Shown piece after piece: positions 6,499 to 37,329 of a stretch of 40,198 nucleotides of DNA. Numbering within the stretch: position 1 is the stretch's first letter; each line of letters opens with the position of its first letter. Below the pieces are notes generated by a model. The model saw only the letters and a program-made list of their open reading frames with translations, ran no database searches and was not told where the DNA came from. The translations under genes were made by a program, and so were the position numbers. Origin of the DNA: a virus; the IMG/VR virus record IMGVR_UViG_3300045988_096677, positions 1 through 40,198 of that record; one strand, given 5' to 3'.

Positions 6499-6521
6499 CC
6501 CACAAGGAGGAAAACATCACA

Positions 6522-7316
6522 ATGGTCAACATGAACAAGATCGCAATCATCAACCTCAAGGGCGGCGTCGGCAAGTCCGTCACCGCCTGCAATCTGGCCT
6601 GCATCCTTGCCGAATTGCATTCCCGGCGGGTGCTGGTCATGGATCTGGACAAGCAGGCCAACAGCACCAAGTTTTTCAACCGGTTTTCGGATACGACGGA
6701 CACGATGGGCGACGTGCTGGAACTCCGGGTCAAGCTGCCCGACGTGATCCGGCACACCGATTTCCCCGGCGTAGACATTGCGCCCAGCAACATGACCATG
6801 CTGCTGGCAAACAAAAACGTCATGTTCGACGTCCGCCGCCCGCAGGCCGACCGGCTGAAAAATGCCCTTGAGCCGCTTCGCAGCGAGTATGACTATTGCA
6901 TTTTCGACTGCCCGCCCGATATCGACATGGCGACCATCAATGCTTTGGTCGCTGCCGATTGGGTCATCATCCCGGTGGACTGCGACGAATGGGCGTTAGA
7001 CGGTCTGGCCGAGATCATGGATCAGGTGCGAGACGTCCAGCACGGGTACAACCCGCAGCTTGAGGTCATGGGCGTGCTTGCCACAAAGTATGACCGGGGG
7101 CGGTACTCCATGCAGACCGTCAATCAGATCGCAAATCTTCACATTCCGGCTTTCCGGAACGAGGATGGCAGCGTGATGCGGATCAACTACAGCGTCAAGG
7201 TCAAAGAAGCCAAAGCAGCGCATAAGCCGCTGCACCGGTACACGCCTAACATCCCGTCGAGCGCACAGTATAAGCAGCTGGCCGCGGCGGTCAAAAAAAT
7301 TGCGGAGGGTGAGTAA
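6522..7316 (+). CDS. parA: ParA/Soj-family partition ATPase (264 aa)
   Basis: SD aaggagg upstream of ATG 6522. Deviant Walker A IAIINLKGGVGKSVT. Walker B-like VLVMDLD and IFDCPP. Confidence 0.9.
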   Translation: MVNMNKIAIINLKGGVGKSVTACNLACILAELHSRRVLVMDLDKQANSTKFFNRFSDTTDTMGDVLELRVKLPDVIRHTDFPGVDIAPSNMTMLLANKNVMFDVRRPQADRLKNALEPLRSEYDYCIFDCPPDIDMATINALVAADWVIIPVDCDEWALDGLAEIMDQVRDVQHGYNPQLEVMGVLATKYDRGRYSMQTVNQIANLHIPAFRNEDGSVMRINYSVKVKEAKAAHKPLHRYTPNIPSSAQYKQLAAAVKKIAEGE

Positions 7317-7317
7317 T

Positions 7318-7809
7318 ATGTGGCCGAAAGAACTGATTGACCGAAAATCAGCGATTGACATTGTAAACAACCTCAAATTTAAAATGCTCAGGGCACTAAA
7401 CGAGTCATTCAAAGGCTCAGACGTTCTCTGCGCATTGGAAGCGGCGAAAAGAGAACTTGAAAAGCTCGTGTATTATGTTCCAGACGAATTTTATCCAGAG
7501 TGGAGAAATCCTGAAACAGAACTGCCGAAGGTCGAAACCGAAGTGCTGGTTTTGTACCGCAACGACATTGGCGGATATAGCATTACAACGGCGCACTATG
7601 AAAACGGCAATGTTTTCTCCGAAGACAGCAAATGGTATTGGGAAGATCTTCCCAATTGGGGAACATACGACGAGGAACGGGATGACTACCGAATCCCTGA
7701 AGGATGGTGGGAAAACCGCCACTTCAACCTGGACGAAGTCTACAACAACCAGATAGACCGCCCTGTTGTGGGCTGGATGCCTTTACCGCCGAAAGGAGAA
7801 CAAAAATGA
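7318..7809 (+). CDS. DUF551-like phage protein (163 aa)
   Basis: SD ggagggtgag. C-terminal VVGWMPLPPKGE and ELPKVETEVLVLY resemble DUF551. Visibly AT-richer than its neighbours. Confidence 0.65.
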   Translation: MWPKELIDRKSAIDIVNNLKFKMLRALNESFKGSDVLCALEAAKRELEKLVYYVPDEFYPEWRNPETELPKVETEVLVLYRNDIGGYSITTAHYENGNVFSEDSKWYWEDLPNWGTYDEERDDYRIPEGWWENRHFNLDEVYNNQIDRPVVGWMPLPPKGEQK

Positions 7810-8936
7810 GCAGCGCAGGATTATTGAGCGGCCTGCTGAATACGCAAGGCTCTGACCCGGCGGGGGCGAAGATGCAGGTGGAGATGCTGCCGATCGACTG
7901 GATCATCCCGAACCCGGATAACAAGATCTACCATGTAGGCGATGTTTCTCAGCTGGCCGAGGATATCCGGAAAAATGGCGTCCGCCAACCGTTGGAAGTT
8001 GTGCAAACGGGCGGCATGACGTACAAGCTGATCGGCGGCGAGCGTCGGTTGACGGCGTGCCAAGAGCTGCTGGACGGTGGCGATGATCGGTTTTCCTCCC
8101 TGCCCTGCATCATCCTCGAGAGCAAGGGCGAGCTGGATGACCGAATCGCGCTGATTACGGCCAACGCAACAGCGCGGGAACTGACCGACGGCGAACGTCT
8201 GGCGCAGTATGAAGCTCTGAAAGATGCACTGACCGCAAAAAAACAGGCCGGACAGCTGGAAGGCAAGGTCAGAGACGCTCTGTGCAAGATTCTGGGCGAA
8301 GGAAGCGGAACCCTTGCCCGGCTGAATGCAATTTCCGCCAACTGCACCGAGGACGTCAAGGACAAGCTGCACCGGGGAGAAATCGGCTTGATGGAAGCTT
8401 ACCGGTACGCCCAGAGCGTGGCCGAAACCCAACGGAAAGCGAAGCAGCCGGAACCGCCAAAAACCGAACCACCGAAAACGTTACCGCGGAACCCGGATTA
8501 TGCGGAGTGGAATCTTCCGCCAGAAGCTATAGAGATGGTGGAAAAGGCTCACGAGGAGCAAAAAAGAGCCCAGAACGATGCACCTAAACCTACGGCATCA
8601 CCGTACAGGGCAAAACCTGTGGAGATTCACGAGCAGCCGAAGGAGCAAACCCATAAGCGGGACACGCTGCACAAACTGGCGGAGAAAACGCTGGGTGCAA
8701 ATGTAGCATGGGAACTGGCGTGGGAAGACGTGCGCTTTCGGCTTGCGTACTACAAGCAGCCTCTGCCCGGCGGGGCGGTGCTGTGGAAGCAGGTAGACAC
8801 AACCAGAGAGGCTGCCGGTCAACCATGCGAAAACTACGCGATCATCCTGAACGACGGAACGTTCAAAACGATCGGCTGGGAATTGTATAACGACGCATTG
8901 ATGAGCTTGGCAAATTATCTTAATCTTTGCGAATGA
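7806..8936 (+). CDS. parB: ParB/Spo0J-like N-terminal-domain protein with a long C-terminal extension (376 aa)
   Basis: ATG 7806 overlaps the previous stop. ParB boxes GVRQPLEV and LIGGERRLTAC. Confidence 0.85.
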   Translation: MSSAGLLSGLLNTQGSDPAGAKMQVEMLPIDWIIPNPDNKIYHVGDVSQLAEDIRKNGVRQPLEVVQTGGMTYKLIGGERRLTACQELLDGGDDRFSSLPCIILESKGELDDRIALITANATARELTDGERLAQYEALKDALTAKKQAGQLEGKVRDALCKILGEGSGTLARLNAISANCTEDVKDKLHRGEIGLMEAYRYAQSVAETQRKAKQPEPPKTEPPKTLPRNPDYAEWNLPPEAIEMVEKAHEEQKRAQNDAPKPTASPYRAKPVEIHEQPKEQTHKRDTLHKLAEKTLGANVAWELAWEDVRFRLAYYKQPLPGGAVLWKQVDTTREAAGQPCENYAIILNDGTFKTIGWELYNDALMSLANYLNLCE

Positions 8937-11028: not shown

Positions 11029-11104
11029 GCCGCGTTAGCTCAACAGGCAGAGCACCCGGCTCATAACCGGATCGTTGCAGGTTCGATTCCTGCACGCGGC
11101 ACCA
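11029..11104 (+). tRNA. tRNA-Met (anticodon CAT), CCA encoded
   Basis: Acceptor GCCGCGT/ACGCGGC. D arm GCTC-AACAGGCA-GAGC. Anticodon loop CTCATAA. T arm GCAGG-TTCGATT-CCTGC. Then A-CCA. Confidence 0.9.
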
Positions 11105-25155: not shown

Positions 25156-25359
25156 ATGTATCTGATAACGTTTCTTCCCGGAACGGGTGAAATTACCTCG
25201 GCGGGGAGCATTGACCCGAACTATGCGCTGAAAACCCTGCCGGAAGGTGCGGCTTATGTAGACACCCTGCCGCCCGGCAGCCTGAGCGACTACCGGTACA
25301 TCAACGGCGCGTATGTCAAGGCCACAAAGGAGAACAACAATGCACAATATCACGATTGA
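25156..25359 (+). CDS. Hypothetical small tail-module protein (67 aa)
   Basis: SD gaggtgag upstream. Track ORF. Confidence 0.5.
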   Translation: MYLITFLPGTGEITSAGSIDPNYALKTLPEGAAYVDTLPPGSLSDYRYINGAYVKATKENNNAQYHD

Positions 25360-27787
25360 TTTCAACAACCCGGGTCTGCCGCAGGTGATCGACGTCATGC
25401 AGTCCGACGCCCAGAGCCGGTTCATCGGCCTAACGCTCTACGACGGCGGCGTGCCGTACTCCGCGCCCAGCGGCGCACAGTATACGGTGCAGTATCGCGG
25501 ATCCGGTGCCAACAACATGGGCTGGTATGACACCATCCAGCTTTCCAGCGGCACCCGCAAGGCGGTTGTTGTGTCCAGCAGCAGCCCAAACGTCGTCACC
25601 CTCGAGCTGGCAGAGCAGGCGTTGCGCGTCAACGGCAAGGTGGAGGTCTCCCTCTGCGTCGTCAACAACACCGGGTATAAGCTCAACACCTTCCCCATCA
25701 TCTGCCGCGTCACCGGTGCGCCCTACGTTGACCCCGTGTCTGTGCGGTCGTATTTCTACGTCACCGGCATCACAAACGATCAGTGGATGGCGTATGTCAC
25801 CGCATGTCAGGACGCCCAGAACCGGGCAGAAGCCGCCGCAGCAACGTTTCAAACCGACCCCACCCTCTCCGTCTCCGGCAAGGCTGCGGATGCGAAAGCG
25901 ACGGGAGATGCGGCTGGTGAGATAAAGGAAAATTTAGCCTTTTATATGAATCAAAAGCTGACATCAACATATGATTGCAAAAAAGATACAACTAGCATTG
26001 TGTTGGGAAATGTACCGATAATTGAAGGCCATTTTTATATTATACACATATGCTCAAACGATGTAGACCTTAGTGGCGCAACGATAGGACTAAAAGAAGA
26101 TAACGGAGGCAAATTTCATCCCTGGGCATCAAAACAAGATATTCATATCGGAATTATTGCTGATAAGACAGACTATGAATCGTTTGTATGGATGCATCTA
26201 AATACAGATGCTACAGTATATACTGAAATATGGGATTCATCAATCGATAAAAGCAGTTTAAAGTGGATATATGGCGCAATTGATTATGAAAGTGGTATGT
26301 ACATTATGCCATCAGATCATCGTTACAATTATAGAATTGCATACAATGCTTTTATTCCACAGTCTGTAAAACAAATAAAAGCATCAGATGGATATCAGAT
26401 TTCATTGTGGAAATATGACAAAAATGAGAATTTCATAGGGTTAGATAGTCCCGATTCATATTGGAAAAAAATATGTATATTAGACCATTCTAAATTTAAA
26501 TATAAAATCGTATTTCGTAAAGCTGATGACTCGGAAACGTTAAGATTAGGGGATTCTGAGAATATTTTGTTTTTGGAAAATATTCGTAAAATGCCATCTA
26601 TGATTATTGTAGCTGCGTCAGATTCGTCAGATAAGGATAAAGTAATCGCTGATTATGTCTGTGACGGATCTAATGACGAGGTTGAAATACAGAAAGCAAT
26701 TTCCGATTTAAATACAGCAGGAGTATGTGGTACTGTCCTATTGTGTGATGGTACTTATTTTATCGATTCATTATATTATAGTGGAAACGATACCCTTGGA
26801 TATTTTGCATTATATATGGACAATCCAAGCGTAGCACATTCTTTAATAATTAAAGGCACGGGACATCCAACGGTAACTGGCAAAACAGAAGTTGGATGTA
26901 GTGCAAAAATATACTTGACAAAAAAATCTATCGAAAATATAGATAGAGATAGACCAGTGACAATAATAGGAGCATTACCGAGTGACATTAATAATTTAAG
27001 AAAAACATATCCTAATTTATACATGTCTATTGAACATGTTGCCATCAATTATCCATCCAATGAATATGCAATAACTGGAATAAGCGGTGAATATTTATCG
27101 GGCATGTCTGTCAATGACGTATTGATATCAGTATCAGATGTTGGAGTGCTGTCAACAACACCGAACAAAAAATCTATTGGCATAAGAGGACTACCTGGAT
27201 GGAACTTTGGCGTTAACTATAGGATTGATAACGTATTTGTATTTGGGTTTGGTGTTGCATACGATATCGGCGGAGAGCATTTGATAATGTCAAGCTGCGG
27301 ATGCCGTCAATGTGATATAACATATAGATTTAATGCGTATGAACAACCAGATAAAATGTCCCATCCACAAACACTTATAAATTGCTGTGAGGAAGGATGC
27401 AAAAGAAGTATGTACTTTTGCAGATCCAATACAAAACAATCAATAAATATCGTTGATTTTAATATTGAATATAGACCGTCAGAGTTTTTTGGAAAATGGG
27501 ACAGAACTACGAAAGCAGTTGAAGAAAGACCGGGAGATTATAGAGGAAGAATAACTTATTCAGCTAATCATGAGGATTATGTAAATAGTGATGATATTGA
27601 ATTTTGGAAAGAAGGTAGTGGCTTAAATGTTAAAACTGAAAATTTAAACCACAAATTATGCGGTACAAAAGACGAAAGACCTTTAAAACCTAATTTAAAT
27701 CAACAGTTTTATGATACAACTCTTAACAAAATGCTATATTTTATAAATGGCAATTGGGTTGATGCAATGGGAATGCAGATTAAATAA
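25340..27787 (+). CDS. Receptor-binding / tail fibre protein: BppU-like N-terminal domain plus an AT-rich distal module with a pectate-lyase-like beta-helix signature (815 aa)
   Basis: ATG 25340 with SD aaggag at 7 nt. N-terminus MHNITIDFNNPGLPQVIDVMQSDAQSRFIGLTLYDGGVPY is BppU-like. Linker PTLSVSGKAADAKATGDAAGEI. Downstream motif DGSNDEVEIQKAISDLNTAGVCGTVLLCDGTYFI. Confidence 0.8.
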   Translation: MHNITIDFNNPGLPQVIDVMQSDAQSRFIGLTLYDGGVPYSAPSGAQYTVQYRGSGANNMGWYDTIQLSSGTRKAVVVSSSSPNVVTLELAEQALRVNGKVEVSLCVVNNTGYKLNTFPIICRVTGAPYVDPVSVRSYFYVTGITNDQWMAYVTACQDAQNRAEAAAATFQTDPTLSVSGKAADAKATGDAAGEIKENLAFYMNQKLTSTYDCKKDTTSIVLGNVPIIEGHFYIIHICSNDVDLSGATIGLKEDNGGKFHPWASKQDIHIGIIADKTDYESFVWMHLNTDATVYTEIWDSSIDKSSLKWIYGAIDYESGMYIMPSDHRYNYRIAYNAFIPQSVKQIKASDGYQISLWKYDKNENFIGLDSPDSYWKKICILDHSKFKYKIVFRKADDSETLRLGDSENILFLENIRKMPSMIIVAASDSSDKDKVIADYVCDGSNDEVEIQKAISDLNTAGVCGTVLLCDGTYFIDSLYYSGNDTLGYFALYMDNPSVAHSLIIKGTGHPTVTGKTEVGCSAKIYLTKKSIENIDRDRPVTIIGALPSDINNLRKTYPNLYMSIEHVAINYPSNEYAITGISGEYLSGMSVNDVLISVSDVGVLSTTPNKKSIGIRGLPGWNFGVNYRIDNVFVFGFGVAYDIGGEHLIMSSCGCRQCDITYRFNAYEQPDKMSHPQTLINCCEEGCKRSMYFCRSNTKQSINIVDFNIEYRPSEFFGKWDRTTKAVEERPGDYRGRITYSANHEDYVNSDDIEFWKEGSGLNVKTENLNHKLCGTKDERPLKPNLNQQFYDTTLNKMLYFINGNWVDAMGMQIK

Positions 27788-27908
27788 ATAAAAAGTAGTC
27801 AACAATCGAAGGGTGGTGTTGAACTAATGAAAAAAAACGACAAACCCAAAAAGCCGCACAGAATGTAACCTAAAGAGGGCTTTATCCCACTAACAGAAAG
27901 GACGTGAC

Positions 27909-28571
27909 ATGATGGCAAAAACCATATTAGATGTTTCCCGCTGGCAGGGCAGCATCGACTGGGACAAGGTCAAGGCAAGCGGCCTTGTCTCCGGTGTGAT
28001 GCTCAAGACGGTGTCCACCAACCGCAAGTTGAGCAAGCGCAAGGACGGGCTGTACATTGACCCGACCTTTGAGCGCAACTATGCCGAGTGCAAGCGGCTG
28101 GGGATCCCGGTGGGCGTGTACTACTACACCTACGCCGTCTCGCATACCAGTGCCGATGCAGAGCTTGCCCTGCTCAAGACTGCGCTGACCGGCAAGACTT
28201 TTGAGCTGCCGATCTGCGTGGATGTGGAGGACAACAAGCTCTGCAAGCTTGGCAAGCAGGCGTTGACCGACCTGACCGCGTATGCGCTGGCGACCATCGA
28301 GCAGTGGGGCTTCTATGCCCTGCTCTATACCGGGCTTAATTTCGGTGAGACCCGGCTGTATATGAGCGGTGCAGCGTTGCGCAAGTACGACGTATGGCTG
28401 GCCGCCTACCGTGCCAACAAGCCCGCCACGTCGTGGGCTTACGGGATGTGGCAGTACACCAGCACCGCCAGCGTGCCGGGCATCACGGGCAACGTGGACT
28501 TATCGCACGCTTACAAGGACTACGCCGCGATCATCGCGAAAAAGGGGCTGGACAGGCTCCTGGAGGTATAA
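27909..28571 (+). CDS. GH25 muramidase endolysin
   Basis: ILDVSRWQGSIDWDKVKASG...GVYYYTYA...DVE...WLAAY are GH25 lysozyme signatures. Confidence 0.9.
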   Translation: MMAKTILDVSRWQGSIDWDKVKASGLVSGVMLKTVSTNRKLSKRKDGLYIDPTFERNYAECKRLGIPVGVYYYTYAVSHTSADAELALLKTALTGKTFELPICVDVEDNKLCKLGKQALTDLTAYALATIEQWGFYALLYTGLNFGETRLYMSGAALRKYDVWLAAYRANKPATSWAYGMWQYTSTASVPGITGNVDLSHAYKDYAAIIAKKGLDRLLEV

Positions 28572-29065: not shown

Positions 29066-29332
29066 ATGATTATTACCGGCATGGCAGAATATGAAAGCGT
29101 GTGCAAGAATGCACTGGTTGAGTGGTACAACGCACACCGCGAGACCAAAATCACCCTCGAAAACGTCTTTGTGGTCTGGGCTTGCAAGTCGCTCCAGAAC
29201 TACAAGGCACTACTGTCTACCACCGTGAGCGGTGATGGTATCTATGCTGAGTACACCTACAACGGCGATAAGCAGGAGCTGTACGAGGATGTGTACGGAA
29301 AGCTGACCAATCGCTGCATCAAGCAGCTGTAA
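29066..29332 (+). CDS. Hypothetical protein (88 aa)
   Basis: SD aaggagga upstream. Track ORF. Confidence 0.6.
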   Translation: MIITGMAEYESVCKNALVEWYNAHRETKITLENVFVVWACKSLQNYKALLSTTVSGDGIYAEYTYNGDKQELYEDVYGKLTNRCIKQL

Positions 29333-29621: not shown

Positions 29622-29799
29622 CCGACAGCAGATGACCGCCGCGATCAGACGCGCACCGCTTGGGAGGGTAGATCGGGAAATCGCCCGTTTGCGGTACGTT
29701 GAGCGGCTCCCGCTGCCGGACATTGCAGCGCAGACCCACTATTCCCGGCAGGCGGTCGGGTATCGCTTGCAACAGATTGCAATGACCTTGCAACTGTGA
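29566..29799 (+). CDS. Small sigma-70 region-4-like HTH protein (77 aa, GTG start, start uncertain)
   Basis: LDRQQMTAAIRRAPLGRVDREIARLRYVERLPLPDIAAQTHYSRQAVGYRLQQI resembles sigma-70 region 4 (Sigma70_r4_2). No clear SD. Confidence 0.45.
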   Translation: MLPVAAARVVLPAALQGLDRQQMTAAIRRAPLGRVDREIARLRYVERLPLPDIAAQTHYSRQAVGYRLQQIAMTLQL

Positions 29800-29842
29800 T
29801 ATAATAATCAAGGCCTCCGTTGTTGGAGACCTTGCTGTAAAA

Positions 29843-29885
29843 AGCCCCGAGGTTTCGCGTTTGCGATTCCCCGGGGCTTTTTTTA
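29843..29885. terminator. Bidirectional terminator between convergent genes
   Basis: agccccg(29843-29849)...cggggct(29872-29878), flanked by aaaa on the left and tttttattttt on the right. Confidence 0.7.
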
Positions 29886-31094
29886 TTTTTTCACGCTCTT
29901 TTTTCTTTTTTTGCCTCGCGCGGCGTTGAACTCTTCGCTGTGCTCTGCCATATACTCCCGCTTGTGCTCCCGGACGGTTTCCGGCACGACAGTTTTCGCG
30001 CACTCCGGGCAATATTTTTGCAGCCCGCTCTGGACAATATACGGCTTGCCGCAGGCCTCGCAGATGTCCTCACTGCCGATTTTGCGCGGCTTGCGCTTCC
30101 GGCGTGCTGCAGCCTGCTCCCGCTCCACTTCCGGCTTGCACTGGGGGCAGTATTTCGAGCGTGGATACCCCTCGAATTCTGCCCCGCAACGGGCGCACAC
30201 CCGCGGCCGCAGAACGCTGGACGACTTCACGGCCTTTGCGCAATCTTCGCACATATAGGAGTATTTGCTTTTCGTCCAATACAGCTTTCCGCACTGGGAG
30301 CATTTGCGCAACGCTGGCTTTTTGAGCTTCCCCTTATTTTTTCTCGCACTCTCTTCCCTGTTTTTCTCGGCTAGGGCTTCAAGATCTCTCTGGACGGCGT
30401 CTTCCCAGCCGTCATATTGTGCAAGGTACGGCCTCAATATGATGTCGTTGGCCAATCCTCTAACCTTAGCCGCTTCCTCGAGTGTGTCGAAGCGACCAAG
30501 GCAGATGGAGACCTTCCGAAACATGATTCTCGCTATGTATTTTTTTACGCGCTTGTTATAGGTGACTCCATTGACTCCCGTCGTGGAATTTTTATTGGTC
30601 TTTCCTTCCAACCGCATTTTTGCGTTCAAAAGGCTTGAGCCATCCATAATAACATGCTTATCCAACGTTGCAATCGCGCGGCTTTTTTTTCTCGAACACT
30701 TGTCGCAGGAAGTCGTTTTGAAAATCCGACGAAGATTAAGGTCGTAGTATTCTCCGCATTCAGGACATTTGACATGACCCCAAGTTTCTGTATAATAACT
30801 TTTTCGGTTTGGAAATTCCCTCAAGTATACACGCTCGACGAAAAAGCCGTTGACAGTTTTCCCTTCGTATTGTTGTTTTTTCCTTTCGAGCATATTTGAG
30901 GTTACATTTTTGACCCTTTTTTTTCGCGCACAATCTACGCAACAGAAACACTCTTTCGGGCTTCGCAGACTACCATTTTGCACATCCTGTATTTTTCCGC
31001 AGGAACAACGACATTTCGTATACCCATTCTTTTCCGAAGAGCCTATTACCGTCCACTCTTTGTATTTTTTCCCTATTACAATTTTTTCTGCCAT
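29883..31094 (-). CDS. AP2-domain DNA-binding protein with multiple CxxC zinc ribbons (403 aa)
   Basis: The start at 31094 (MAEKIV...) is preferred because the 31133 start would overlap the upstream terminator hairpin. AP2 core GVNGVTYNKRVKKYIARIMFRKVSICLGRFDTLEEAAKVR. At least three C-terminal ribbons: CSQCG..CEDC, CARCG..CPQC, CEACG..CPEC. Confidence 0.75.
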   Translation of the reverse strand: MAEKIVIGKKYKEWTVIGSSEKNGYTKCRCSCGKIQDVQNGSLRSPKECFCCVDCARKKRVKNVTSNMLERKKQQYEGKTVNGFFVERVYLREFPNRKSYYTETWGHVKCPECGEYYDLNLRRIFKTTSCDKCSRKKSRAIATLDKHVIMDGSSLLNAKMRLEGKTNKNSTTGVNGVTYNKRVKKYIARIMFRKVSICLGRFDTLEEAAKVRGLANDIILRPYLAQYDGWEDAVQRDLEALAEKNREESARKNKGKLKKPALRKCSQCGKLYWTKSKYSYMCEDCAKAVKSSSVLRPRVCARCGAEFEGYPRSKYCPQCKPEVEREQAAARRKRKPRKIGSEDICEACGKPYIVQSGLQKYCPECAKTVVPETVREHKREYMAEHSEEFNAARGKKRKKSVKK

Positions 31095-31115
31095 ATCTTC
31101 ACCGCTTTCAAAATA

Positions 31116-31143
31116 ACCCCGGGGCTCATACAAGCCTCGGGGT
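31116..31143 (-). terminator. Hairpin ACCCCGGGGC/GCCTCGGGGT downstream of the 74-aa gene
   Basis: 10-bp stem with one G-T pair. The minus-strand downstream sequence is tattttgaaag. Confidence 0.5.
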
Positions 31144-31157
31144 CTTATTGGTATCTC

Positions 31158-31382
31158 TTATTCTGCGTACTCGCCCCAGCCGCTCAGGGTGCAGGTGTTG
31201 CCGTTGCCGTCTTCCCAGCCTGCGGTGATGGGATCTTTGCCAGCGTCCAGATCGCGCTTGCACAGCTCCATATCGTCGTCATCTGCGGGGTAGATGTAAC
31301 CAAGAACCTTGTCGTCCTTGACGACCTTCAGCGCGTCACAGTTGATCTCGTAGACCTCAATACCATTTTCAAAGCTCCACAT
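31158..31382 (-). CDS. Small strongly acidic protein (74 aa), unknown function
   Basis: SD ggaggt in the duplicated 5'UTR. By my count about 18 D/E versus 6 K/R, including a DDDD run. Confidence 0.65.
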   Translation of the reverse strand: MWSFENGIEVYEINCDALKVVKDDKVLGYIYPADDDDMELCKRDLDAGKDPITAGWEDGNGNTCTLSGWGEYAE

Positions 31383-31510
31383 GATTGTTACCTCCGATTG
31401 TTTTATGTTGTTGTGTTGTTTCCCTTGCTGTGATTATAGTATAGCACAAATACCGTATTTCGTCAAGTGCTTTTTGCAAAAAAACGGTGTTTTTGCAAAA
31501 AATTATTTCA
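31380..31510 (-). repeat. Copy B of a ~130-bp duplicated promoter/5'UTR cassette (paralogue at 32252-32386)
   Basis: By-eye alignment gives about 10 mismatches over ~130 bp. It covers the start codon, SD, a CA-rich UTR, -10, -35 and two TTTTTGCAAAAA palindromes (31471-31482 and 31490-31501). Confidence 0.85.
31438..31466 (-). promoter_or_regulatory. Near-consensus sigma-70 promoter TTGACG-N17-TGcTATACT (copy B)
   Basis: Minus strand: -35 at 31461-31466, 17-nt spacer, -10 at 31438-31443 with an upstream TG. Confidence 0.65.
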
Positions 31511-31937
31511 AAAATTCCCGCAACGCTTCCAAAACCATGTCGTTTCGGCTGCGGTGTTCGACTTCCATCCTTGCGGTCAGCCGCTCTGCCAACTTTTCGG
31601 GCAGATAGATCGTAACCTTGATGTTTTGCCCTCCATCGCTGCCGCCAAAGAGCAGATCGTACTGGTCGCCGTCGAGCCGTTCCTCGACCCATTTCCGGGC
31701 GCGTTCCTCGCTGATCGGCTTGATCTTCTCACCACCAGCCCATTCGTTCTGGCCGATCTGCTCATTGTACCGGCTGGCAGCTCCACCGCAGCAGTACAGG
31801 AAATAGTTGCCAGCCTTGGTGCGGTACAGCTCTTCTTCCTCGTGATACAGCCCACGGGAGTCTCCATCGGACTCCCACCGGCCAAGCTTTTTGGCCGTCT
31901 CGGTGTTGTACCGCATCCCGTTGATAACTTTCTTCAT
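31503..31937 (-). CDS. Protein with a C-terminal ribbon-helix-helix (CopG-like) domain (144 aa)
   Basis: C-terminal NIKVTIYLPEKLAERLTARMEVEHRSRNDMVLEALREFL fits the RHH beta-alpha-alpha pattern. The N-terminal domain is unknown. Confidence 0.65.
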   Translation of the reverse strand: MKKVINGMRYNTETAKKLGRWESDGDSRGLYHEEEELYRTKAGNYFLYCCGGAASRYNEQIGQNEWAGGEKIKPISEERARKWVEERLDGDQYDLLFGGSDGGQNIKVTIYLPEKLAERLTARMEVEHRSRNDMVLEALREFLK

Positions 31938-31960
31938 TGCGATTTCCTCCGTTTAATAAT

Positions 31961-31990
31961 AGCCCCGGGGTTCATACGAGCCTCGGGGCT
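31961..31990 (-). terminator. Hairpin AGCCCCGGGG/CCTCGGGGCT downstream of the 82-aa gene
   Basis: Same arm and loop family as 31116-31143 (ccccggggYtcatacRagcctcgggg). Confidence 0.45.
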
Positions 31991-32005
31991 GTGTAAAGTC
32001 CTGTG

Positions 32006-32254
32006 TTATGCGACCACCTTGGCGATAGCGTCCGCGATCTCCTGCATGGTCATGTGGCGGCGGGTGTTTGCCACGGTGACGATAGACTCGCTGTGGTACT
32101 CCGTCCAATCGTTGTCGCTCAGCTGGTAGACAGCCATCACTTCGCCGTCGGCGCGGTCGTAGCTGATCTGCACATAACCACGGTTGCAGTTGCAGGTCTC
32201 GCCGCTTGCCTTCTTCAGACCGTTCATATTCATACCGTACTTATTGACCTTCAT
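32006..32254 (-). CDS. Small protein (82 aa), unknown function
   Basis: Driven by copy A of the duplicated promoter/UTR, with SD ggaggc. No resemblance to the 74-aa cargo of copy B. Confidence 0.65.
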   Translation of the reverse strand: MKVNKYGMNMNGLKKASGETCNCNRGYVQISYDRADGEVMAVYQLSDNDWTEYHSESIVTVANTRRHMTMQEIADAIAKVVA

Positions 32255-32386
32255 AATTGTTGCCTCCGATTGTTTTGTGTTGTTGTTTTGCTTCCCTTGC
32301 TGTGACTATAGTATAGCACAAATACCGTATTTCGTCAAGCGTTTTTTTGCAAAAAAGCGGTGTTTTTGTAAAAAATTATTCTCAAC
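32252..32386 (-). repeat. Copy A of the duplicated promoter/5'UTR cassette
   Basis: See 31380-31510. The palindromes here read ttttttgcaaaaaa and tttttgtaaaaa. Confidence 0.85.
32310..32338 (-). promoter_or_regulatory. Near-consensus sigma-70 promoter TTGACG-N17-TGcTATACT (copy A)
   Basis: Minus strand: -35 at 32333-32338 and -10 at 32310-32315. Confidence 0.65.
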
Positions 32387-32464
32387 TTTGGCCGTCGTTG
32401 TACCATCGTTGTCTCTTGCTTCCACGGCGAGTGGTAGGATGGGGGTGCAAGGAGGGCGATTGAC

Positions 32465-33007
32465 ATGGCTCAGTATAACAACGGCTATTCTGCTCCTGCC
32501 GGTGCCGGAGCGTACACCCAGCCCGGAGCGCAATACTCCGGCGGAATGGGTGCAGTAGGTGCAACACCGCCTCTTTCTTGCGGTTACGGAGCGGCCAACG
32601 TGCCCCGCACGATGGGCTACCAGCAAGCCGCCCCGCAAGAAGTGCCTGTCGGGTTGCTGGGGCGTCCGGTTTCCAGCCGCGAGGAATTCTTGGCGATCCC
32701 GTCCGATCTGTATGGCCGGGGCATCTATTGTCCGGATCTGCGCAACGGCGTAATCTACTATAAGCGGCTCAACCCAGAAACCGGAGAGTCGGACATTGGG
32801 GAGTACTACAGCCCGCAGGCATGGCAGGCAATGCAGCAGGCACAAGCTGCGCAGCAAGCCCAGAGGATGCAGGCTGCTGCACCTGTGCAGGATTACGTCC
32901 TCAAGGCAGACTATAACGAGCTTGTCCAGCGCGTCAACGAGCTGGACGAACGGTTGCAAAAGCCCACCAAGACCATCCCGGCGGGCAAGAAAGGAGAAGC
33001 AGTATGA
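32465..33007 (+). CDS. Cargo operon gene 1: protein with a G/A/Q/Y/P-rich N-terminus and Q/A-rich coiled C-terminus (180 aa)
   Basis: SD aaggaggg upstream. Track ORF. Confidence 0.7.
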   Translation: MAQYNNGYSAPAGAGAYTQPGAQYSGGMGAVGATPPLSCGYGAANVPRTMGYQQAAPQEVPVGLLGRPVSSREEFLAIPSDLYGRGIYCPDLRNGVIYYKRLNPETGESDIGEYYSPQAWQAMQQAQAAQQAQRMQAAAPVQDYVLKADYNELVQRVNELDERLQKPTKTIPAGKKGEAV

Positions 33008-33258
33008 CACAGTCACCGCTTGATATGCTGACTCACAGCCCGATCATGCAGCTGGCGAATCTTGCCCGTGTCGGCCAGAACCCCATGGCACTGATCCAGC
33101 AGCTGAGCGGACAGAGTGCCCCCATTATGCAGGGCTACAACCTGATACAGGGCAAGAGCGAGGCCCAGCTCCGAAATATGGCTCAGAATCTAGCCCGGGA
33201 GCGCGGCATAGATCTCAATCAATTGGCGTCGGCACTCAATCTGACGCTCCCGAAATAA
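33004..33258 (+). CDS. Cargo operon gene 2: small helical Q-rich protein (84 aa)
   Basis: ATGA-coupled to gene 1, with SD aaaggagaag. Confidence 0.65.
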   Translation: MTQSPLDMLTHSPIMQLANLARVGQNPMALIQQLSGQSAPIMQGYNLIQGKSEAQLRNMAQNLARERGIDLNQLASALNLTLPK

Positions 33259-33367
33259 CACAATACCCCCTCAGTTTTGCGGGTCTTGACGAAAACCGCC
33301 TGACAACGGCTTCGCCCGTCGCATCCGGCGACGGGATAGCAATATCGCAAAACTAAGGAGGCTTAGT

Positions 33368-34249
33368 ATGGACGATTTCGCAACCGGCTATCTTGCAGGG
33401 CAGGACGGCGGCAATAACAACAGCGGTGGCTTTTTCGGCAACGAGGGGCTGTGGGCGGTGATTATCCTTGCCATCATCTTTGGCTGGGGCAACTACGGTA
33501 ACGGGCGCAACGGCGGCGACAACGGAATGGCAAACTACATTCCGTATCTTGTGGGCACCGGAGCAAGCGGTCAGGGCGGCGCAGACACCCGCGCGGCACT
33601 GTCTGAGGGCTTCTACCAGCAGGACACCTCCCGCTCTCTGGCTGGCATCCAGAGCGGTATCTGCTCTCTGGGCTATGACCAGTTAGCGCAGATGAACGGC
33701 ATCAACGCCAACATTTCCAGCGGTTTCGCGGGCGTGAACAGTGCCATCTGTCAGCTGGGCTATCAGAACGCACAGCTGGTCAACGGCCTCGAGCGCAGTG
33801 TCGCCAACGGCGATAATGCGATCACGCTGGCTCTGATGCAGGAAGGCAACGCGCGGCAGGCTGGCCAGACGGCCATCCAGACCCAGATCGCAAGTTGCTG
33901 CTGCGACAACAAGCAGCTCATCGGCGACCTGCGCTACACCATCGCGCAGGAAGATTGTGCCACCCGGCAGGCCATTTCTGATACCGGACGCGCCATCATG
34001 GACAACTGCAACGCCAACTATCGCAGTCTGATGGACTATTTTGTGCAGGACAAGATCGCCAGCCTGACCGCGGAAAATCAGACGCTCAAGTTCGCGGCCT
34101 CCCAGCAGGCTCAGAACACCCTGCTGACCAATGCGATGGCTCAGCAGACCGACGTGCTGATGACTCGGCTCAACCCGCGCGCACAGCCTGCCTACGTTGT
34201 ACCCAATCCCAACGCGGCCACCAACTGCTGCGGGAATCCGTGCTACTAA
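33368..34249 (+). CDS. Cargo operon gene 3: membrane-anchored Gly/Asn-rich, Q-rich, Cys-rich protein (293 aa)
   Basis: SD taaggagg. TM segment LWAVIILAIIFGW flanked by GGNNNSGGFFGN and GNYGNGRNGGDNG. Internal duplicated motif S-x-IC-x-LGY-x3-Q-x2-NG. CCC cluster and C-terminal NCCGNPCY. Confidence 0.75.
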   Translation: MDDFATGYLAGQDGGNNNSGGFFGNEGLWAVIILAIIFGWGNYGNGRNGGDNGMANYIPYLVGTGASGQGGADTRAALSEGFYQQDTSRSLAGIQSGICSLGYDQLAQMNGINANISSGFAGVNSAICQLGYQNAQLVNGLERSVANGDNAITLALMQEGNARQAGQTAIQTQIASCCCDNKQLIGDLRYTIAQEDCATRQAISDTGRAIMDNCNANYRSLMDYFVQDKIASLTAENQTLKFAASQQAQNTLLTNAMAQQTDVLMTRLNPRAQPAYVVPNPNAATNCCGNPCY

Positions 34250-34337
34250 GGACAGTTTGACTCCCCGATAACACCGGGTGATTTATCGGGGCAGCGGCAG
34301 AATGCCGCTGCCCTTGATTGTTAAGGAGGACTATACT

Positions 34338-34715
34338 ATGGCTTGTGCAACAAGCTGCAAACTCTGCCGCCGGTTAGTCGTAAGCACGGCGGTCAATTAT
34401 GACAGCACCAATAACCAGCTCATCATCGCACTCCCGGCGGGCGCATACGCCAACGGCGAGAAATACTGCATCGTCGTGGCTCAGTCTATCCCGGAGTCTA
34501 CCACGATCAACGCCGCAGTCGTCATCACGGTGGGCGACGGCGCGACCCGCTACCCTTTGACGGACAACACCTGCGCACAGGCGACCGCTGAGTGCATCCG
34601 GACGCGGACACGTTACGCCACCCGCGTGGCAACGTCGGCCGCCGGCACGGGAACGTTCAAGTTTTTGGGCTGTTTTTGCCGCTCCCATGTGTCTGCTCCG
34701 GCAGCGATCTCGTAA
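34338..34715 (+). CDS. Cargo operon gene 4: Cys-rich beta-rich small protein (125 aa)
   Basis: SD taaggagga 7 nt upstream of ATG 34338. In frame with track ORF 34278..34715. MACATSCKLCRR at the N-terminus and LGCFCRSH near the C-terminus. Confidence 0.7.
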   Translation: MACATSCKLCRRLVVSTAVNYDSTNNQLIIALPAGAYANGEKYCIVVAQSIPESTTINAAVVITVGDGATRYPLTDNTCAQATAECIRTRTRYATRVATSAAGTGTFKFLGCFCRSHVSAPAAIS

Positions 34716-34728
34716 GGAGGTGTGATCT

Positions 34729-35373
34729 ATGAGCAAGCGTGACACGATCCGCATGATGATGCTGCGAGACCACAGCAACACCCCGAAATATGACCCGGCC
34801 GAAGCTGAGCGCGAGCGCAAAGAGCGTGATCTCGAGCGTCGCCTGCGTCGGCTGGAAGAGGGAGAGCGAGAACCTCGCCGCTCGTGGGAGATCCGGGAAA
34901 ACAACCGGTACATTGACCCCGACCATACTCCCCGCTATCCGGACGCGGACAACTACGACCGCCGTATGCCTCGCATCGGCTTTTCACAGGGAGACGACTG
35001 GGAACGCACCCGCGGCCAGTATGAGCACGGTGGCGCGGCCAGCCGGACGGTCAAAATGCCCCGCCAGCACTTGACACACGATGAGGCCAAGGAGTGGACG
35101 GAGCACATGGCCAATGCCGACGGCACCACCGGCGCACATTGGCCGTATGAGCAGGCCGTCCAGCTTATGACTCAGCGCGGCCTTGACTGCAACAAGGACG
35201 ATTTTTGGGCGGTGCTCAACATGATGTACAGCGATTATAGCAAGGTCGCCAAGTCGTACAGCGTGGATAACCCCAATTTTTACGCCGACATGACCGCCGC
35301 GTTTTTGCGCGACCAAGACGCAGTTGACGGCAAGGCGGCTGTCTATTGGGAGTGCATCGCGGACGCAGACTGA
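34729..35373 (+). CDS. Cargo operon gene 5: protein with a highly charged R/E-rich N-terminal half and a conserved-looking C-terminal domain (214 aa)
   Basis: SD taaggaggtg. C-terminal NADGTTGAHWPYEQ...NMMYSDYSKVAK...FYADM...FLRDQDA. Confidence 0.7.
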   Translation: MSKRDTIRMMMLRDHSNTPKYDPAEAERERKERDLERRLRRLEEGEREPRRSWEIRENNRYIDPDHTPRYPDADNYDRRMPRIGFSQGDDWERTRGQYEHGGAASRTVKMPRQHLTHDEAKEWTEHMANADGTTGAHWPYEQAVQLMTQRGLDCNKDDFWAVLNMMYSDYSKVAKSYSVDNPNFYADMTAAFLRDQDAVDGKAAVYWECIADAD

Positions 35374-35464: not shown

Positions 35465-35507
35465 AAACCCGCATGACTGCTGGAACATCCAGTAATCATG
35501 CGGGTTT
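35465..35507. terminator. Bidirectional rho-independent terminator
   Basis: 12-bp stem aaacccgcatga/tcatgcgggttt with an inner ctgga/tccag stem. T tracts on both sides. Confidence 0.7.
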
Positions 35508-35516
35508 CTTTCAAGT

Positions 35517-35537
35517 TGCGCCAGCAGGAGTCGAACC
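35517..35537 (-). mobile_element. Candidate attP core: copy of a tRNA 3' end (T loop, T stem 3' strand, acceptor 3' strand)
   Basis: The minus strand reads GGTTCGACTCCTGCTGGCGCA, but the matching T-stem 5' strand is absent, so it is not a whole tRNA. Lies 52 nt downstream of the integrase stop. Confidence 0.6.
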
Positions 35538-35588
35538 TTTTTCGGGGCGCGTTGAATCGTTGATTATCATGATTATACTACTTTCGCA

Positions 35589-36740
35589 CTACTTTTCGCG
35601 TTTGGGGTCATTCTCGGCATAGTAAGCAATCATCTTTTGGGTGGCGTCCTTGAGCTTACGCTCCCGGATGTGGGTGTAGATCTTGTAGGTTGTCGCTATG
35701 TCGGAGTGACCCATAATCTTTTTGGCCTCTAACACGCCCACACCGGCGTCGTAGAGGTCAGACGCGAACGAGTGCCGGAATTGGTGCGCGGTAACGGTCG
35801 GCTCCATGACCGGCGGAAGAGGATTGACGGCTGCTTTTGCGCCACGCCGCTTGTCTCTGTATCGGGTCTTGCTCTCACTTGGGCGCACAAGCCCCAGTGA
35901 CGTGCAGTATTGGAGCCACCGGCTGTGGTATTCGGCATCTGTCAAGGGTCTTGTCAGCCCACCGATGATATAGACTTTCGGCGCGGCTTTCAGCGGCTCG
36001 AGCAGCTGCTTGAGGTGTGGCAGCAGGGGGATGGTGCGGACTCCGTTGGATGTTTTGGGCGTCTGTATCCGCGTTCCGCCGCCAGCCCAAGAAACATTCT
36101 TAGTTATGTATATTTTGTCGGCCTGAAAGTCGATGTCATCCCATTGCAGGGCGATGAGCTCACCCAAGCGGCAACCGGTGTACATGAGCATCCATGCGCA
36201 CAGCCCAAAGCCTTCCGGGTGCGCACGGAACACCGCAAGCTCTCTGTCGGTGGGCGGCTCACGCTCCACGGCGGGTTTCCCGGCGGGTGCGGAAACATCC
36301 TGCATCGGGTTATAAGAGGATCCGCTGTCCAGCCGCCAGAATTTCAGGATTCCCCGCAGCACGCTCATTCCGTTGCGGATGGTGCTGGTCGAAAGCCCCT
36401 CATCCTTGAGACGCTGACCAAAATTGGCGACCATTGCGGGCGTTATTTCGTCCATGTGCTTCCCCGCAAAGTACGCCACGCACCGCTCATAATTGGACTT
36501 GTAGGTACTATCTGTGCCCGGCTTGATGCGCCCCAGAAGCTTCTCCCAATATTTCGCGGAAACGGTCTCGAAAAGATCCGCAGCTGCCTGCTCTTCCTGC
36601 TTCTGCCGCAGAGCCTCAATATATTTCCCCTCCGCCTCGGTCTTGGTGTGGCCATAGAAGACCTTATATTTGCCGTCGGGCATCTTGCGCTTGCATTGAT
36701 ACAGGCCGTCAGCGCGCTGGCCTTTTTTGGGTCTTGGCAT
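35589..36740 (-). CDS. int: Tyrosine recombinase / phage integrase (383 aa)
   Basis: Start at 36740 (MPRPKKGQRADGLYQCK...) is preferred. C-terminal catalytic signatures HQFRHSFAS and MGHSDIATTYKIYTH. N-terminal SAM-like domain. Confidence 0.9.
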   Translation of the reverse strand: MPRPKKGQRADGLYQCKRKMPDGKYKVFYGHTKTEAEGKYIEALRQKQEEQAAADLFETVSAKYWEKLLGRIKPGTDSTYKSNYERCVAYFAGKHMDEITPAMVANFGQRLKDEGLSTSTIRNGMSVLRGILKFWRLDSGSSYNPMQDVSAPAGKPAVEREPPTDRELAVFRAHPEGFGLCAWMLMYTGCRLGELIALQWDDIDFQADKIYITKNVSWAGGGTRIQTPKTSNGVRTIPLLPHLKQLLEPLKAAPKVYIIGGLTRPLTDAEYHSRWLQYCTSLGLVRPSESKTRYRDKRRGAKAAVNPLPPVMEPTVTAHQFRHSFASDLYDAGVGVLEAKKIMGHSDIATTYKIYTHIRERKLKDATQKMIAYYAENDPKREK

Positions 36741-37329
36741 TTTCCACGTCCTCCTTGTTGATGGAGTAGCTGCCCGCCTGCTTGCCAATTGCGGCCTCTC
36801 CGCAGTCTCGAGCCTGATACAGGATGTCCATGATGGGATGCACGCCGTTGATATCGGGGTCGATGTGCATCATCTGGCACAGCTCGTAATACTTGATGAC
36901 CATATTGACGATCACGACGCGATCCCGGAGCAGGGTGTGCAGGTTGGCCAGCATCTCGGTGATGACGCCCACCGGATCGGAGCCGTGGTCGCCGTAATAC
37001 AGGTAGCACCACGCGTCCACCTCGTAGGGTGACATTTCGTCCACGAGTTTATGCAGGACCTGCCGTTTTTCGGCGTCGGTCGGGCTGTCGTTCAGCCGCT
37101 CGAGCAGCCCGGGGTGAACGCAAGCGTCTGTATAACGTTTTGCGGCCACGCCACAGCAGACGCACCACTTGATAAGATCATCCAGCGTCGTTGACACGAG
37201 CCCTTGCTCCCGGTTGGCAATGGCCGTCTTACTAACTCCCATCTTTCGGGCAAGCCGCTCTTGGCTGAGGCCGCTTTTTGCGCGGGCAATTGCCAACACT
37301 TCCGCTACCCGACGTCTGTATTCATCCAT
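36709..37329 (-). CDS. XRE-family HTH regulator with a ~140-aa C-terminal domain (206 aa)
   Basis: AKSGLSQERLARKMGVSKTAIANREQG is HTH_3-like. Overlaps the int start. Divergent from the small + operon at 37468. Confidence 0.7.
   Translation of the reverse strand: MDEYRRRVAEVLAIARAKSGLSQERLARKMGVSKTAIANREQGLVSTTLDDLIKWCVCCGVAAKRYTDACVHPGLLERLNDSPTDAEKRQVLHKLVDEMSPYEVDAWCYLYYGDHGSDPVGVITEMLANLHTLLRDRVVIVNMVIKYYELCQMMHIDPDINGVHPIMDILYQARDCGEAAIGKQAGSYSINKEDVENAKTQKRPAR

Follow-up and report, generated by a model that had tools for sequence, protein, structure and literature searches.

The subject of this analysis is a five-gene operon in a viral genome of 40,198 nucleotides (nt; IMG/VR record IMGVR_UViG_3300045988_096677), the whole of which is called the window in the following. 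At positions 32465-35373 five tightly spaced open reading frames (ORFs) lie on the plus strand, and the ORF listing and translations bear out all of them as they had been described in an earlier interpretation made from the letters alone (the sequence-only reading). These are g1 (32465-33007, 180 aa), g2 (33004-33258, 84 aa), which overlaps g1 by ATGA, g3 (33368-34249, 293 aa), which is the hallmark protein of the module, g4 (34338-34715, 125 aa from an ATG, with a longer GTG-start ORF possible from 34278) and g5 (34729-35373, 214 aa). Strong ribosome-binding sites (AGGAGG, AAAGGAG or AAGGAGG) are found 6-9 nt upstream of all five start codons, as had been claimed, and the operon is closed by the expected terminator-like hairpin on the plus strand (inverted repeat I5, 35465-35507) with 20-nt arms that are 90% complementary, a 3-nt loop and then TTTCTTTC. 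The five genes are a real compact unit with its own downstream terminator.

The module was surveyed by tblastn and by local hidden Markov models (HMMs) built from diverse loci, which gave a set of 104 sequences, i.e., 103 fetched loci and the window. The sequence-only reading had considered that the genes might be found together in this genome only; more than 100 independent loci, however, share their order, so that they form a unit well beyond it. The order is invariant and always on one strand: a gene for a small helix-turn-helix (HTH) protein (hth), sometimes a papain-like protein of ~130 aa, g1, g2, g3, position 4 and position 5. The last two positions are each filled by one of two families, and all four combinations of them were found. 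The full set from hth through g1 to g5 is present in 67 of the 104 sequences. For g3 (phrog_16490, unknown function, E = 2.1e-36) there are 2641 matches in a word-indexed protein database and at least 561 relatives in IMG/VR, and some clusters at 90% identity hold thousands of member sequences. The module recurs in hundreds of gut viruses infecting Bacillota and so is no cargo private to one prophage. Clostridia phages make up most of the carriers; for metagenomic records the hosts are taken as assigned by the depositors, and the Phascolarctobacterium locus comes from a metagenome-assembled genome into which its 14-kb contig had been binned.

All composition traits listed in the sequence-only reading are visible in the translations of g1 to g5 and can be quantified. 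Its statement that no product matches a nameable family has to be dropped for g5, as residues 109-206 match DUF7841 (PF25223) with E = 1.2e-25 and 90.4 bits against a cut-off of 25.2. DUF7841 is the sole family found in Pfam, NCBIfam and PADLOC scans of g1-g5. Among the PADLOC defence models only LeoA hit g3, at chance level (E = 0.031), and nothing significant came up when g1, g3, g4 and g5 were compared by sequence and by profile with all chains of the Protein Data Bank (PDB). The function of the DUF7841 family is unnamed in Pfam, every module family is listed as 'unknown function' in Pfam or PHROGs, and in the literature no paper describing the module or DUF7841 was found. When the sequences were read by eye, no signal peptide was visible in g1, g2, g4 and g5, and no lipobox or signal peptide in the N-termini of g1-g5; g3 is the only one of the five proteins with a hydrophobic N-terminus.

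The g3 protein begins with a conserved acidic peptide, MDDFATGYLAGQD. Its residues 1-60 consist of 25% G and 15% N and contain the single hydrophobic segment GLWAVIILAIIFGWG. Such a segment is present in all g3 homologs, with a Kyte-Doolittle value of 1.7-2.8 over 15 residues and with Gly/Asn/Trp flanks. The protein also has a duplicated ICxLGY motif, an SCCC cluster, the CCC of which is invariant, the sequence PxPAYxVPNPN and a Cys/Gly tail with a C-terminal NCCGNPCY. Internal repeats have a periodicity of 11/18/29 residues and vary in copy number among homologs. The AlphaFold2 (AF2) model, which is of low confidence, consists of long helices, and g3 is predicted to be an elongated helical rod.

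The small g2 protein (phrog_22984, unknown function) is rich in M, Q and N, helical, and ends with the motif NLAxERGIDLNQL. When 11,925 ORFs were searched with L-x-x-x-[KR]-G-[ILVM]-D-[PL]-N, the motif was confined to g2 and to the N-terminal extensions that g3 carries in those lineages without a separate g2. Because the g2 motif recurs in these extensions, g2 is tied to the N-terminus of g3.

For g4 the AF2 model is an eight-stranded beta-sandwich with a predicted local distance difference test score (pLDDT) of 82.4, low solely at the Cys-bearing termini. Its 8 Cys are clustered at both ends, with C3, C7 and C10 at the N-terminus and CxC at the C-terminus; in an alignment of 46 sequences C7, C10, the core residues C44 and C79, and TRTRYAT are conserved. 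With 50-64% identity, compared to 24-33% for g3 at the same loci, g4 is the most conserved protein of the module, which fits a multi-interface assembly subunit. The products had been called self-assembling-looking, and the predicted repeat-containing rod of g3 and the beta-sandwich of g4 with its flexible Cys-bearing termini agree with that impression. A profile search with g4 against 1.84e9 representatives retrieved 386 clusters; the best 150 are nearly all free-standing proteins of ~70-180 aa, and no long fibre fusions of g4 occur among these best 150 of 386. Foldseek found no neighbour of the g4 model in the PDB, where the best match (E = 0.2) is a phage baseplate or fibre chain. In BFVD the model matches small phage proteins as well as C-terminal knobs of collagen/tail-fibre proteins, and one of the matches is a crAss-like protein named for its DUF7841 domain.

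In other phages position 4 is occupied by an unrelated family of ~140 aa, whose best member matches BclA_C with E = 8.3e-9 and, at 35.8 bits, narrowly misses the cut-off of 38. This match spans profile positions 31-127 of 128, and two of the six members of the alternative family match. Apart from this near-match, Pfam scans of the alternative families and of neighbouring genes gave only sigma-r4 matches for the HTH protein and DUF6275 for one neighbour. In g4 of the window and in 46 members of its family no Pfam match to BclA_C (PF18573) was obtained. Homology of g4 to the BclA_C-like family was considered and rejected, as hhalign gave a probability of 0.2% and thus no detectable homology.

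Of the two outer genes, g1 (phrog_21718, unknown function) gave no relative in the PDB when searched by profile. Its first 60 residues are A/G/Q/Y/P-rich and prion-like, and residues 116-140 consist of 36% Q and 36% A; an alignment of 19 orthologs shows a conserved domain of ~50 aa (RxVxxxxEAxA...IYxK...G), the QA-rich helix and a Lys-rich tail. In g5 the first 100 residues form an Arg/Glu/Asp-rich disordered half, with R making up 21% and E 13%; the protein also contains the NMMYSDY motif. DUF7841 was detected in all but two of 106 g5 homologs and is fused to another Pfam domain in none of the 106. Elsewhere position 5 holds either a DUF7841 protein or another family (alt5), and Arg/Gly/Tyr/Asp-rich disordered motifs are common to both.

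The sequence-only reading had put the operon between the lysis module and attP. An integrase gene is indeed nearby, as the 3' neighbour of the operon (35589-36788, minus strand), but the lysis genes are separated from it by ~3.4 kb. The window is a temperate phage of siphovirus type, in which the endolysin gene (27909-28571) comes after the tail genes for tape measure, Dit, Tal-like and receptor-binding proteins; 3' of it are genes for an XhlA-like protein, a holin-like protein and small proteins. The gap holds small genes, the sigma-r4-like HTH gene, a bidirectional terminator and a minus-strand insertion of 2.5 kb. The HTH gene (29632-29799, plus strand) is the last gene of the late operon and encodes a 55-aa protein like sigma-70 region 4 (PF08281, E = 1.7e-4); its ATG start was picked by alignment to the 55-aa orthologs in L097, L106 and L009. 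Orthologs match PF04545 down to E = 1e-7, and the small HTH protein also gives weak GerE/LuxR-type matches. The local HMM places hth 5' of g1 in most loci, even across insertions, and it is the presumed regulator of the module. Behind hth follows a bidirectional terminator-like hairpin (inverted repeat I6, 29839-29882) with 20-nt arms, 85% complementary, which divides the late operon, including hth, from the insertion. The insertion (29883-32254) splits hth from g1 and contains small genes besides the gene for a Zn-ribbon protein that is HNH-like. Among relatives, insertions of varying content and size (0.5-1.6 kb in L106, L097 and L009) make the region between hth and g1 a hot spot.

Directly upstream of the operon, ~55 nt 5' of g1, lies the direct repeat CGTTGT-N5-CGTTGT (32396-32412, plus strand), of which this is the sole exact copy in the window. 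One copy occurs at the equivalent position in 46 related loci. Downstream of it a TGgTAGGAT box resembles an extended -10 element, and the repeat is a candidate binding site for a regulator in the module's own promoter region. Searches by eye for sigma-E/sigma-K-type or shared promoter motifs 5' of g1 across lineages gave nothing convincing. In several lineages an intrinsic terminator is located 100-130 nt 5' of g1. Because a terminator lies downstream and, in several lineages, another upstream, the CGTTGT site is unique and conserved and hth is kept upstream, the module appears to be a transcription unit of its own.

Two RNA structures are predicted inside the operon. Between g3 and g4 two hairpins had been noticed before and both exist, but their true positions are ~11 nt further left than had been given. 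They form an overlapping pair on the plus strand (34263-34291 and 34288-34314, z = -3.55), of which the second is terminator-like, with 12 bp including 9 GC, followed by UUGAUUGUU, which leads into the ribosome-binding site of g4. The two hairpins should be mutually exclusive because both use a shared GGGG. In L009, L024 and L106 the pair is kept, with covarying stem positions and a better U-tract. Attenuation between g3 and g4, as the sequence-only reading had suggested, is therefore plausible. Between g2 and g3 a structured intergenic RNA (33263-33364, plus strand) has a minimum free energy of -40.6 kcal/mol and z = -3.16. In its predicted outer stem CCCCCUCAGUUUUGCG pairs with CGCAAAACUAAGGAGG, which sequesters the ribosome-binding site of g3 and encloses a GC hairpin. 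The sequence is 87% conserved in L004 and L009, where the inner hairpin carries one compensatory change from G-C to A-U, and this RNA may be a translational control element. Rfam contains no family for either of the two intergenic structures.

The genomic surroundings of the module differ strongly among carriers. It is contiguous with holin and endolysin genes in four of the loci (L001, L003, L008 and L019) and in Butyrivibrio virus Ceridwen, and in one case, a prophage beside smpB, it starts 8 nt after the endolysin gene. Elsewhere it follows an integrase gene. In Dulem virus 35 and bajarodcaudo virus 2 it is inserted between portal/minor-head and scaffold/major-capsid genes, while the endolysin is found in its usual post-tail position far from the module and the integrase is far away too. 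Ceridwen came up in the search with the BclA_C-like family and carries the whole extended module: endolysin, transmembrane protein, hth, terminator, peptidase-like protein, g1, g2, g3 and the BclA_C-like protein, after which an endonuclease-like insert and then the alternative position-5 protein close the row. This phage was isolated on B. fibrisolvens, only lytic growth was seen, and it has no integrase or excisionase (PMC7372960). The module homologs of Ceridwen include QHJ73766-QHJ73769 and QHJ73771.

Parts of the module extend beyond Bacillota phages. The search with DUF7841 led to crAss-like Suoliviridae, in which the holin gene is followed in turn by genes for a 'LysB/FtsL-like lysis regulatory' protein, DUF7841, a 'spike protein/glycoprotein' and two small proteins. 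The HMM clearly identifies the 'spike' genes as homologs of g3 (E = 1e-47 and 8e-44), and a ~143-aa protein after the crAss-like g3 gives a weak g4-like match (E = 0.009). The crAss-like labels 'RNA polymerase sigma factor/ubiquitin-like protein' for DUF7841 and 'spike protein/glycoprotein' for g3 look like over-interpretations. With the crAss g3 as query a further homolog (HMM E = 1e-51) was found in Bacteroides phage C3_41T2LP, isolated on B. uniformis, where the genes after g3 encode a beta protein, an RDY-rich peptide and a third product, DUF7841-like by eye but with no HMM match, all amid recombination genes. Viruses assigned to Methanomassiliicoccales also have g3 homologs (HMM E = 9e-21), which the depositors annotate as phrog_16490. 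Judged by these matches a g3-centred core is spread over viruses of monoderm bacteria, diderm bacteria and archaea. The hosts of the crAss-like phages, B. uniformis and Methanomassiliicoccales are not known to sporulate. In three of the crAss-like genomes (L110-L112: cr6_1, cr125_1 and cr52_1) annotated late genes contain in-frame stops under table 11; stop-codon recoding is known in crAss-like phages, and these stops are consistent with it.

To explain these observations we tentatively favour a mobile accessory operon under a regulator of its own, whose products would form an anchored assembly of rod and knob, aided by three low-complexity proteins, that acts at the envelope during the lytic cycle. 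This is the foremost of the explanations considered, although our confidence in it stays clearly below even. The lytic cycle is preferred because the module adjoins holin and endolysin genes, lies in head-gene blocks and occurs in the lytic-only Ceridwen. From context and composition we infer the function of the module, including membrane anchoring, assembly, regulation by the HTH protein, late timing and the envelope role. In the proposed mechanism g3 would be held by its short N-terminal hydrophobic segment, most simply in the cytoplasmic membrane of the host, and would extend as a Cys-clustered helical rod. The beta-sandwich subunit g4, or its BclA_C-like substitute, would associate or polymerise with the rod, g2 would act at the N-terminus of g3, and g1 and g5 would serve as low-complexity helper or adaptor proteins. 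In Bacillota phages the HTH protein from the end of the late operon probably activates the weak promoter of the module via the CGTTGT repeat, and the RNA structures would then set the ratio of g3 to g4. The products would be expressed with or just after the late genes and act on or at the envelope of the cell, in connection with lysis, egress or what becomes of the lysing cell.

Functionally, spanins would be the nearest analogue of g3. As in lambda Rz/Rz1 and P2 LysB/LysC, g3 combines a putative hydrophobic anchor near its N-terminus with a long region predicted to be helical, conserved Cys and a distal segment rich in Pro, and its module often comes directly after holin and endolysin, with the crAss-like g3 two genes after the LysB/FtsL-like gene. 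In contrast to spanins, the module has, by eye, no lipoprotein partner and no sequence or profile similarity to them, and g3 is part of a five-gene unit. It is sometimes far from lysis genes and is also found in phages of monoderm Bacillota and in archaeal viruses, and many hosts have no outer membrane.

Several observations weigh against the envelope-acting assembly. The hydrophobic segment of g3 is short (12-17 residues) and could be an oligomer core or a virion anchor and not a transmembrane helix. Its topology is ambiguous, since the acidic N-flank and the single Arg after the segment suggest N-out, whereas the g2-like N-terminal extensions of 45-85 aa in the g3 proteins of other lineages suggest N-in. 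The AF2 model of g3 is of low confidence (pLDDT 49.8), no clear canonical heptad signal was found in g3, and no strong sigma-70 consensus promoter was found on the plus strand before g1. Lysis genes are not always next to the module, which in phage C3_41T2LP is surrounded by genes for recombination and in the window and the archaeal virus vir215 lies close to the integrase. Outside Bacillota phages only g3, DUF7841 and a weak g4-like protein were detected and not the full set, and carriers with monoderm, diderm and archaeal hosts argue against a role tied to a single envelope type.

The wide host range and the head-gene placement bring up the main rival, an accessory fibre or adhesin of the virion, which we regard as possible but somewhat more doubtful. 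Here g3 would be a trimeric shaft with its N-terminal hydrophobic peptide plugged into the particle, g4 or the BclA_C-like protein the distal knob and g1, g2 and g5 adaptors or chaperones, and the fibre would bind gut surfaces, mucus or the host reversibly. This would explain the spread over viruses of unrelated hosts in one habitat, as the hosts span three phyla, and it would suit the presence of the module in the head/virion gene blocks of Dulem virus 35, bajarodcaudo virus 2 and the crAss-like phages, the collagen-repeat fibre gene that adjoins the module in L106 and the varying number of rod repeats. The fold of g4, like that of the collagen/tail-fibre C-terminal knobs, and the BclA_C-like alternative at position 4 point in the same direction. 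Depositors label g3 homologs 'spike protein/glycoprotein' or 'outer capsid protein/viral fiber' and g3 has a weak profile match to coronavirus spike heptad repeats (E = 0.14), but fibre annotations may reflect coiled-coil composition only. Moreover, the fibre would need to fit widely differing particles (a 30-kb PolB siphovirus, 40-58-kb siphoviruses, crAss-like phages and archaeal viruses), and in a soluble fibre a hydrophobic segment flanked by Gly/Trp is unusual. Also against a fibre, the module comes with a regulator and terminators of its own, is degenerate in L023 and lies among recombination genes in C3_41T2LP, and g4 is highly conserved whereas receptor-binding tips usually diversify.

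Compared with known attachment fibres such as reovirus sigma-1 and T4 fibritin, the module shares a putative anchor, a predicted helical shaft with repeats, a globular beta domain and variation of the repeat number, as well as the depositor labels 'viral fiber' or 'spike' on g3 homologs. In contrast to these fibres, knob and rod are separate polypeptides, the anchor with its Gly/Trp flanks has the look of a transmembrane segment, and the likeness is only on the level of composition or coiled coil (E = 0.14).

Apparent fusions of collagen/tail-fibre sequences with g3 or g4 were considered as informative domain fusions and rejected, as they are deletion chimeras with a neighbouring collagen fibre gene. 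In the chimeric ORFs (P0182 and P0092-P0099; L023 8001-8630) a collagen-repeat fibre N-terminus is joined to a C-terminal part of g3 or g4. In the relative L106 the collagen fibre gene is intact (5952-7940, 662 aa) and lies between holin and hth, and one of the collagen-fibre/g4 chimeras is located in a phage-plasmid with Rep3/ParA and a reverse transcriptase.

Decay and invasion of the module were seen in several genomes. The phage-plasmid L023 keeps only a chimera of a fibre N-terminus and the C-terminus of g4 together with g5. Homing-endonuclease genes recur within g3 or next to it: in the 109-kb phage L107 g3 is split by a GIY-YIG gene, in Dulem virus 33 an endonuclease gene lies between g2 and g3, and in C3_41T2LP I-HmuI is beside g3. 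Ceridwen has the endonuclease-like insert within its module. Homing endonucleases are expected at loci contested by co-infecting phages, and they therefore speak for a role in superinfection exclusion or competition between viruses, by which a membrane-anchored complex would block genome entry or sequester components of a competitor. A portable, independent transcription unit at variable genome positions with a segment like a membrane anchor would fit such a role, and so would the place beside the integrase and the immunity region in temperate members and the dispensability of a unit that decays in some genomes. However, no PADLOC defence model matched, known exclusion proteins are single and small and not five-gene sets of structural appearance, the frequent embedding in late operons would be poor timing, and the strong conservation of g4 is atypical of arms-race genes. 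We consider this explanation unlikely.

The place by attP had led the sequence-only reading to lysogenic-conversion cargo, remodelling the cell or spore surface of the lysogen as a coat, an exosporium or an appendage-like layer. In its favour the operon of the window adjoins the integrase and has its own terminator, and many hosts are Clostridia. The Cys-, Tyr- and Gly-rich products have no signal peptides, a BclA_C-like protein takes position 4 in relatives, and the HTH protein has weak GerE/LuxR-type matches. The CC motifs and the flexible Cys N-terminus of g4 recall subunits of endospore appendages (ENA; PMC12357932). This proposal does not hold up against the wider survey, which places the module in head-gene blocks, behind endolysin, in a lytic-only phage and in viruses of non-sporulating hosts. 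The full module is present in the integrase-free Ceridwen on Butyrivibrio fibrisolvens, core homologs occur in crAss-like phages, the Bacteroides uniformis phage and Methanomassiliicoccales viruses, and several phages have it in late or head operons. Further, no DUF3992 or DUF4183 was found in the 46 g4 members, the best 50 PDB matches of the g4 model include no solved ENA subunit, and by eye no sigma-E/sigma-K-like promoter was evident 5' of g1. Lysogenic conversion is thus very improbable.

A closer comparison with the ENA and the exosporium nap shows why the spore flavour of the composition is only in part justified. These systems comprise S-/L-ENA with the jellyroll domain DUF3992, F-ENA with DUF4183, and BclA/L-BclA with the C1q-like BclA_C domain (PMC12357932). 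With S-/L-ENA, F-ENA and BclA/L-BclA the module has in common a small beta-sandwich (g4), a flexible Cys N-terminal segment, CC motifs, a Cys-rich partner protein, an interchangeable BclA_C-like protein at position 4 and the lack of signal peptides. In contrast to them g4 has no DUF3992, DUF4183 or BclA_C and no Foldseek match to solved ENA structures, and the module is encoded by viruses, including viruses of non-sporulating hosts. More precisely, no DUF3992 or DUF4183 was detected at E <= 1 in the 46 members of the g4 family, DUF4183 is absent from g1-g5, and no solved ENA chain is among the best 50 Foldseek matches of g4 in the PDB. Therefore g4 as a disulfide-linked spore pilin of the ENA type was rejected, as it fails on domain, fold and host range. 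What stands of the exosporium/spore-coat idea is that a BclA_C-like protein fills the g4 position in other phages, while a spore function is opposed by the host range.

Morons and conversion cassettes resemble the module in being independently terminated units at variable places, in the window by the integrase and attP, and the neighbouring small minus-strand genes have strong promoters of their own. In contrast to morons the module is found in late operons and in non-temperate phages and has a dedicated regulator at the end of the late operon. A restriction to temperate phages fails, since Ceridwen and the crAss-like phages carry the full set or the core.

The lysis genes next to the module would also suit a toxin- or bacteriocin-like assembly which is released by lysis and acts on other cells. 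The products have no signal peptides and could be released only by lysis, and g3 has a hydrophobic Gly-rich segment. A regulator and holin neighbourhood recalls clostridial toxin and bacteriocin loci. On the other hand, Pfam, NCBIfam and the PDB gave no similarity to toxins or bacteriocins, there is no candidate immunity gene, and the viruses that conserve the module have hosts without a common type of envelope. We regard this as the least probable explanation of all. Exclusion, conversion or spore modification, and a toxin are all less likely than the envelope assembly and the virion fibre.

Returning to the rod-plus-knob assembly acting at the envelope, its parts could also be combined in a bolder way, which is distinctly improbable. 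The module would then be a gut-virome-wide kit, independent of the host domain, that assembles a cysteine-crosslinkable scaffold from the anchored rod, the polymerising beta-sandwich and Tyr/Gln-, Met/Gln- and Arg/Gly/Tyr-rich 'stickers'. This fits because of the composition, the conserved CC motifs in g3, g4 and the BclA_C-like family, the lack of signal peptides and the host spread. One possibility would be a membrane-tethered condensate or matrix which is made at the end of infection, stays reduced in the anaerobic gut and cross-links on release or upon contact with oxygen, so that progeny virions or cell remnants are clustered or protected. If true, it would be a counterpart in prokaryotic viruses of occlusion or matrix strategies.

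The module crosses host boundaries that few accessory genes of viruses cross, as its carriers infect Bacillota, Bacteroidota and one order of methanogenic archaea. Since viruses so unlike each other keep it in the same habitat, its function likely informs how viruses finish infection or persist in the gut. The question can be tested with cultured carriers, namely Ceridwen with the full module and C3_41T2LP with a g3 homolog and a reduced neighbouring set. In addition, the misleading labels 'spike glycoprotein' and 'RNA polymerase sigma factor/ubiquitin-like protein' can be corrected.

Some further features of the window were recorded around the operon. Between hth and g1 a direct repeat of 137 nt with copies that are 82% identical is located at 31380-31516 and 32252-32388. 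Each copy contains a strong minus-strand promoter (TTGACG-17-TATACT with TG extension) and palindromic TTTTTGCAAAAA boxes, and the repeats drive two small minus-strand genes (31158-31382 and 32006-32254), which look like genuine morons. The Zn-ribbon protein of the same insertion (29883-31133, minus strand) has 416 aa with many CxxC pairs and matches HNH-endonuclease PHROGs (E = 7e-14); no similarity to the endonuclease-like insert of the Ceridwen module was detectable. An 88-aa protein encoded between the holin-like gene and hth (29066-29332) belongs to DUF6275 (E = 5e-30).

Just downstream of the integrase gene, at ~35516-35540, the minus strand reads GGTTCGACTCCTGCTGGCGCA and, by reading of the sequence, resembles the T-loop and the 3' acceptor end of a tRNA, which fits an attP core that would overlap the 3' end of a host tRNA. 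ARAGORN found no complete tRNA at this site. At 26001-28000 the GC content drops to 33-36% compared to ~57% elsewhere, inside the gene for an 824-aa tail/receptor-binding protein (25313-27787), which suggests that the distal part of the receptor-binding protein was recently gained from a low-GC source. Finally, ARAGORN identified a phage-borne tRNA-Met (CAT) gene at 11029-11104 of the window.

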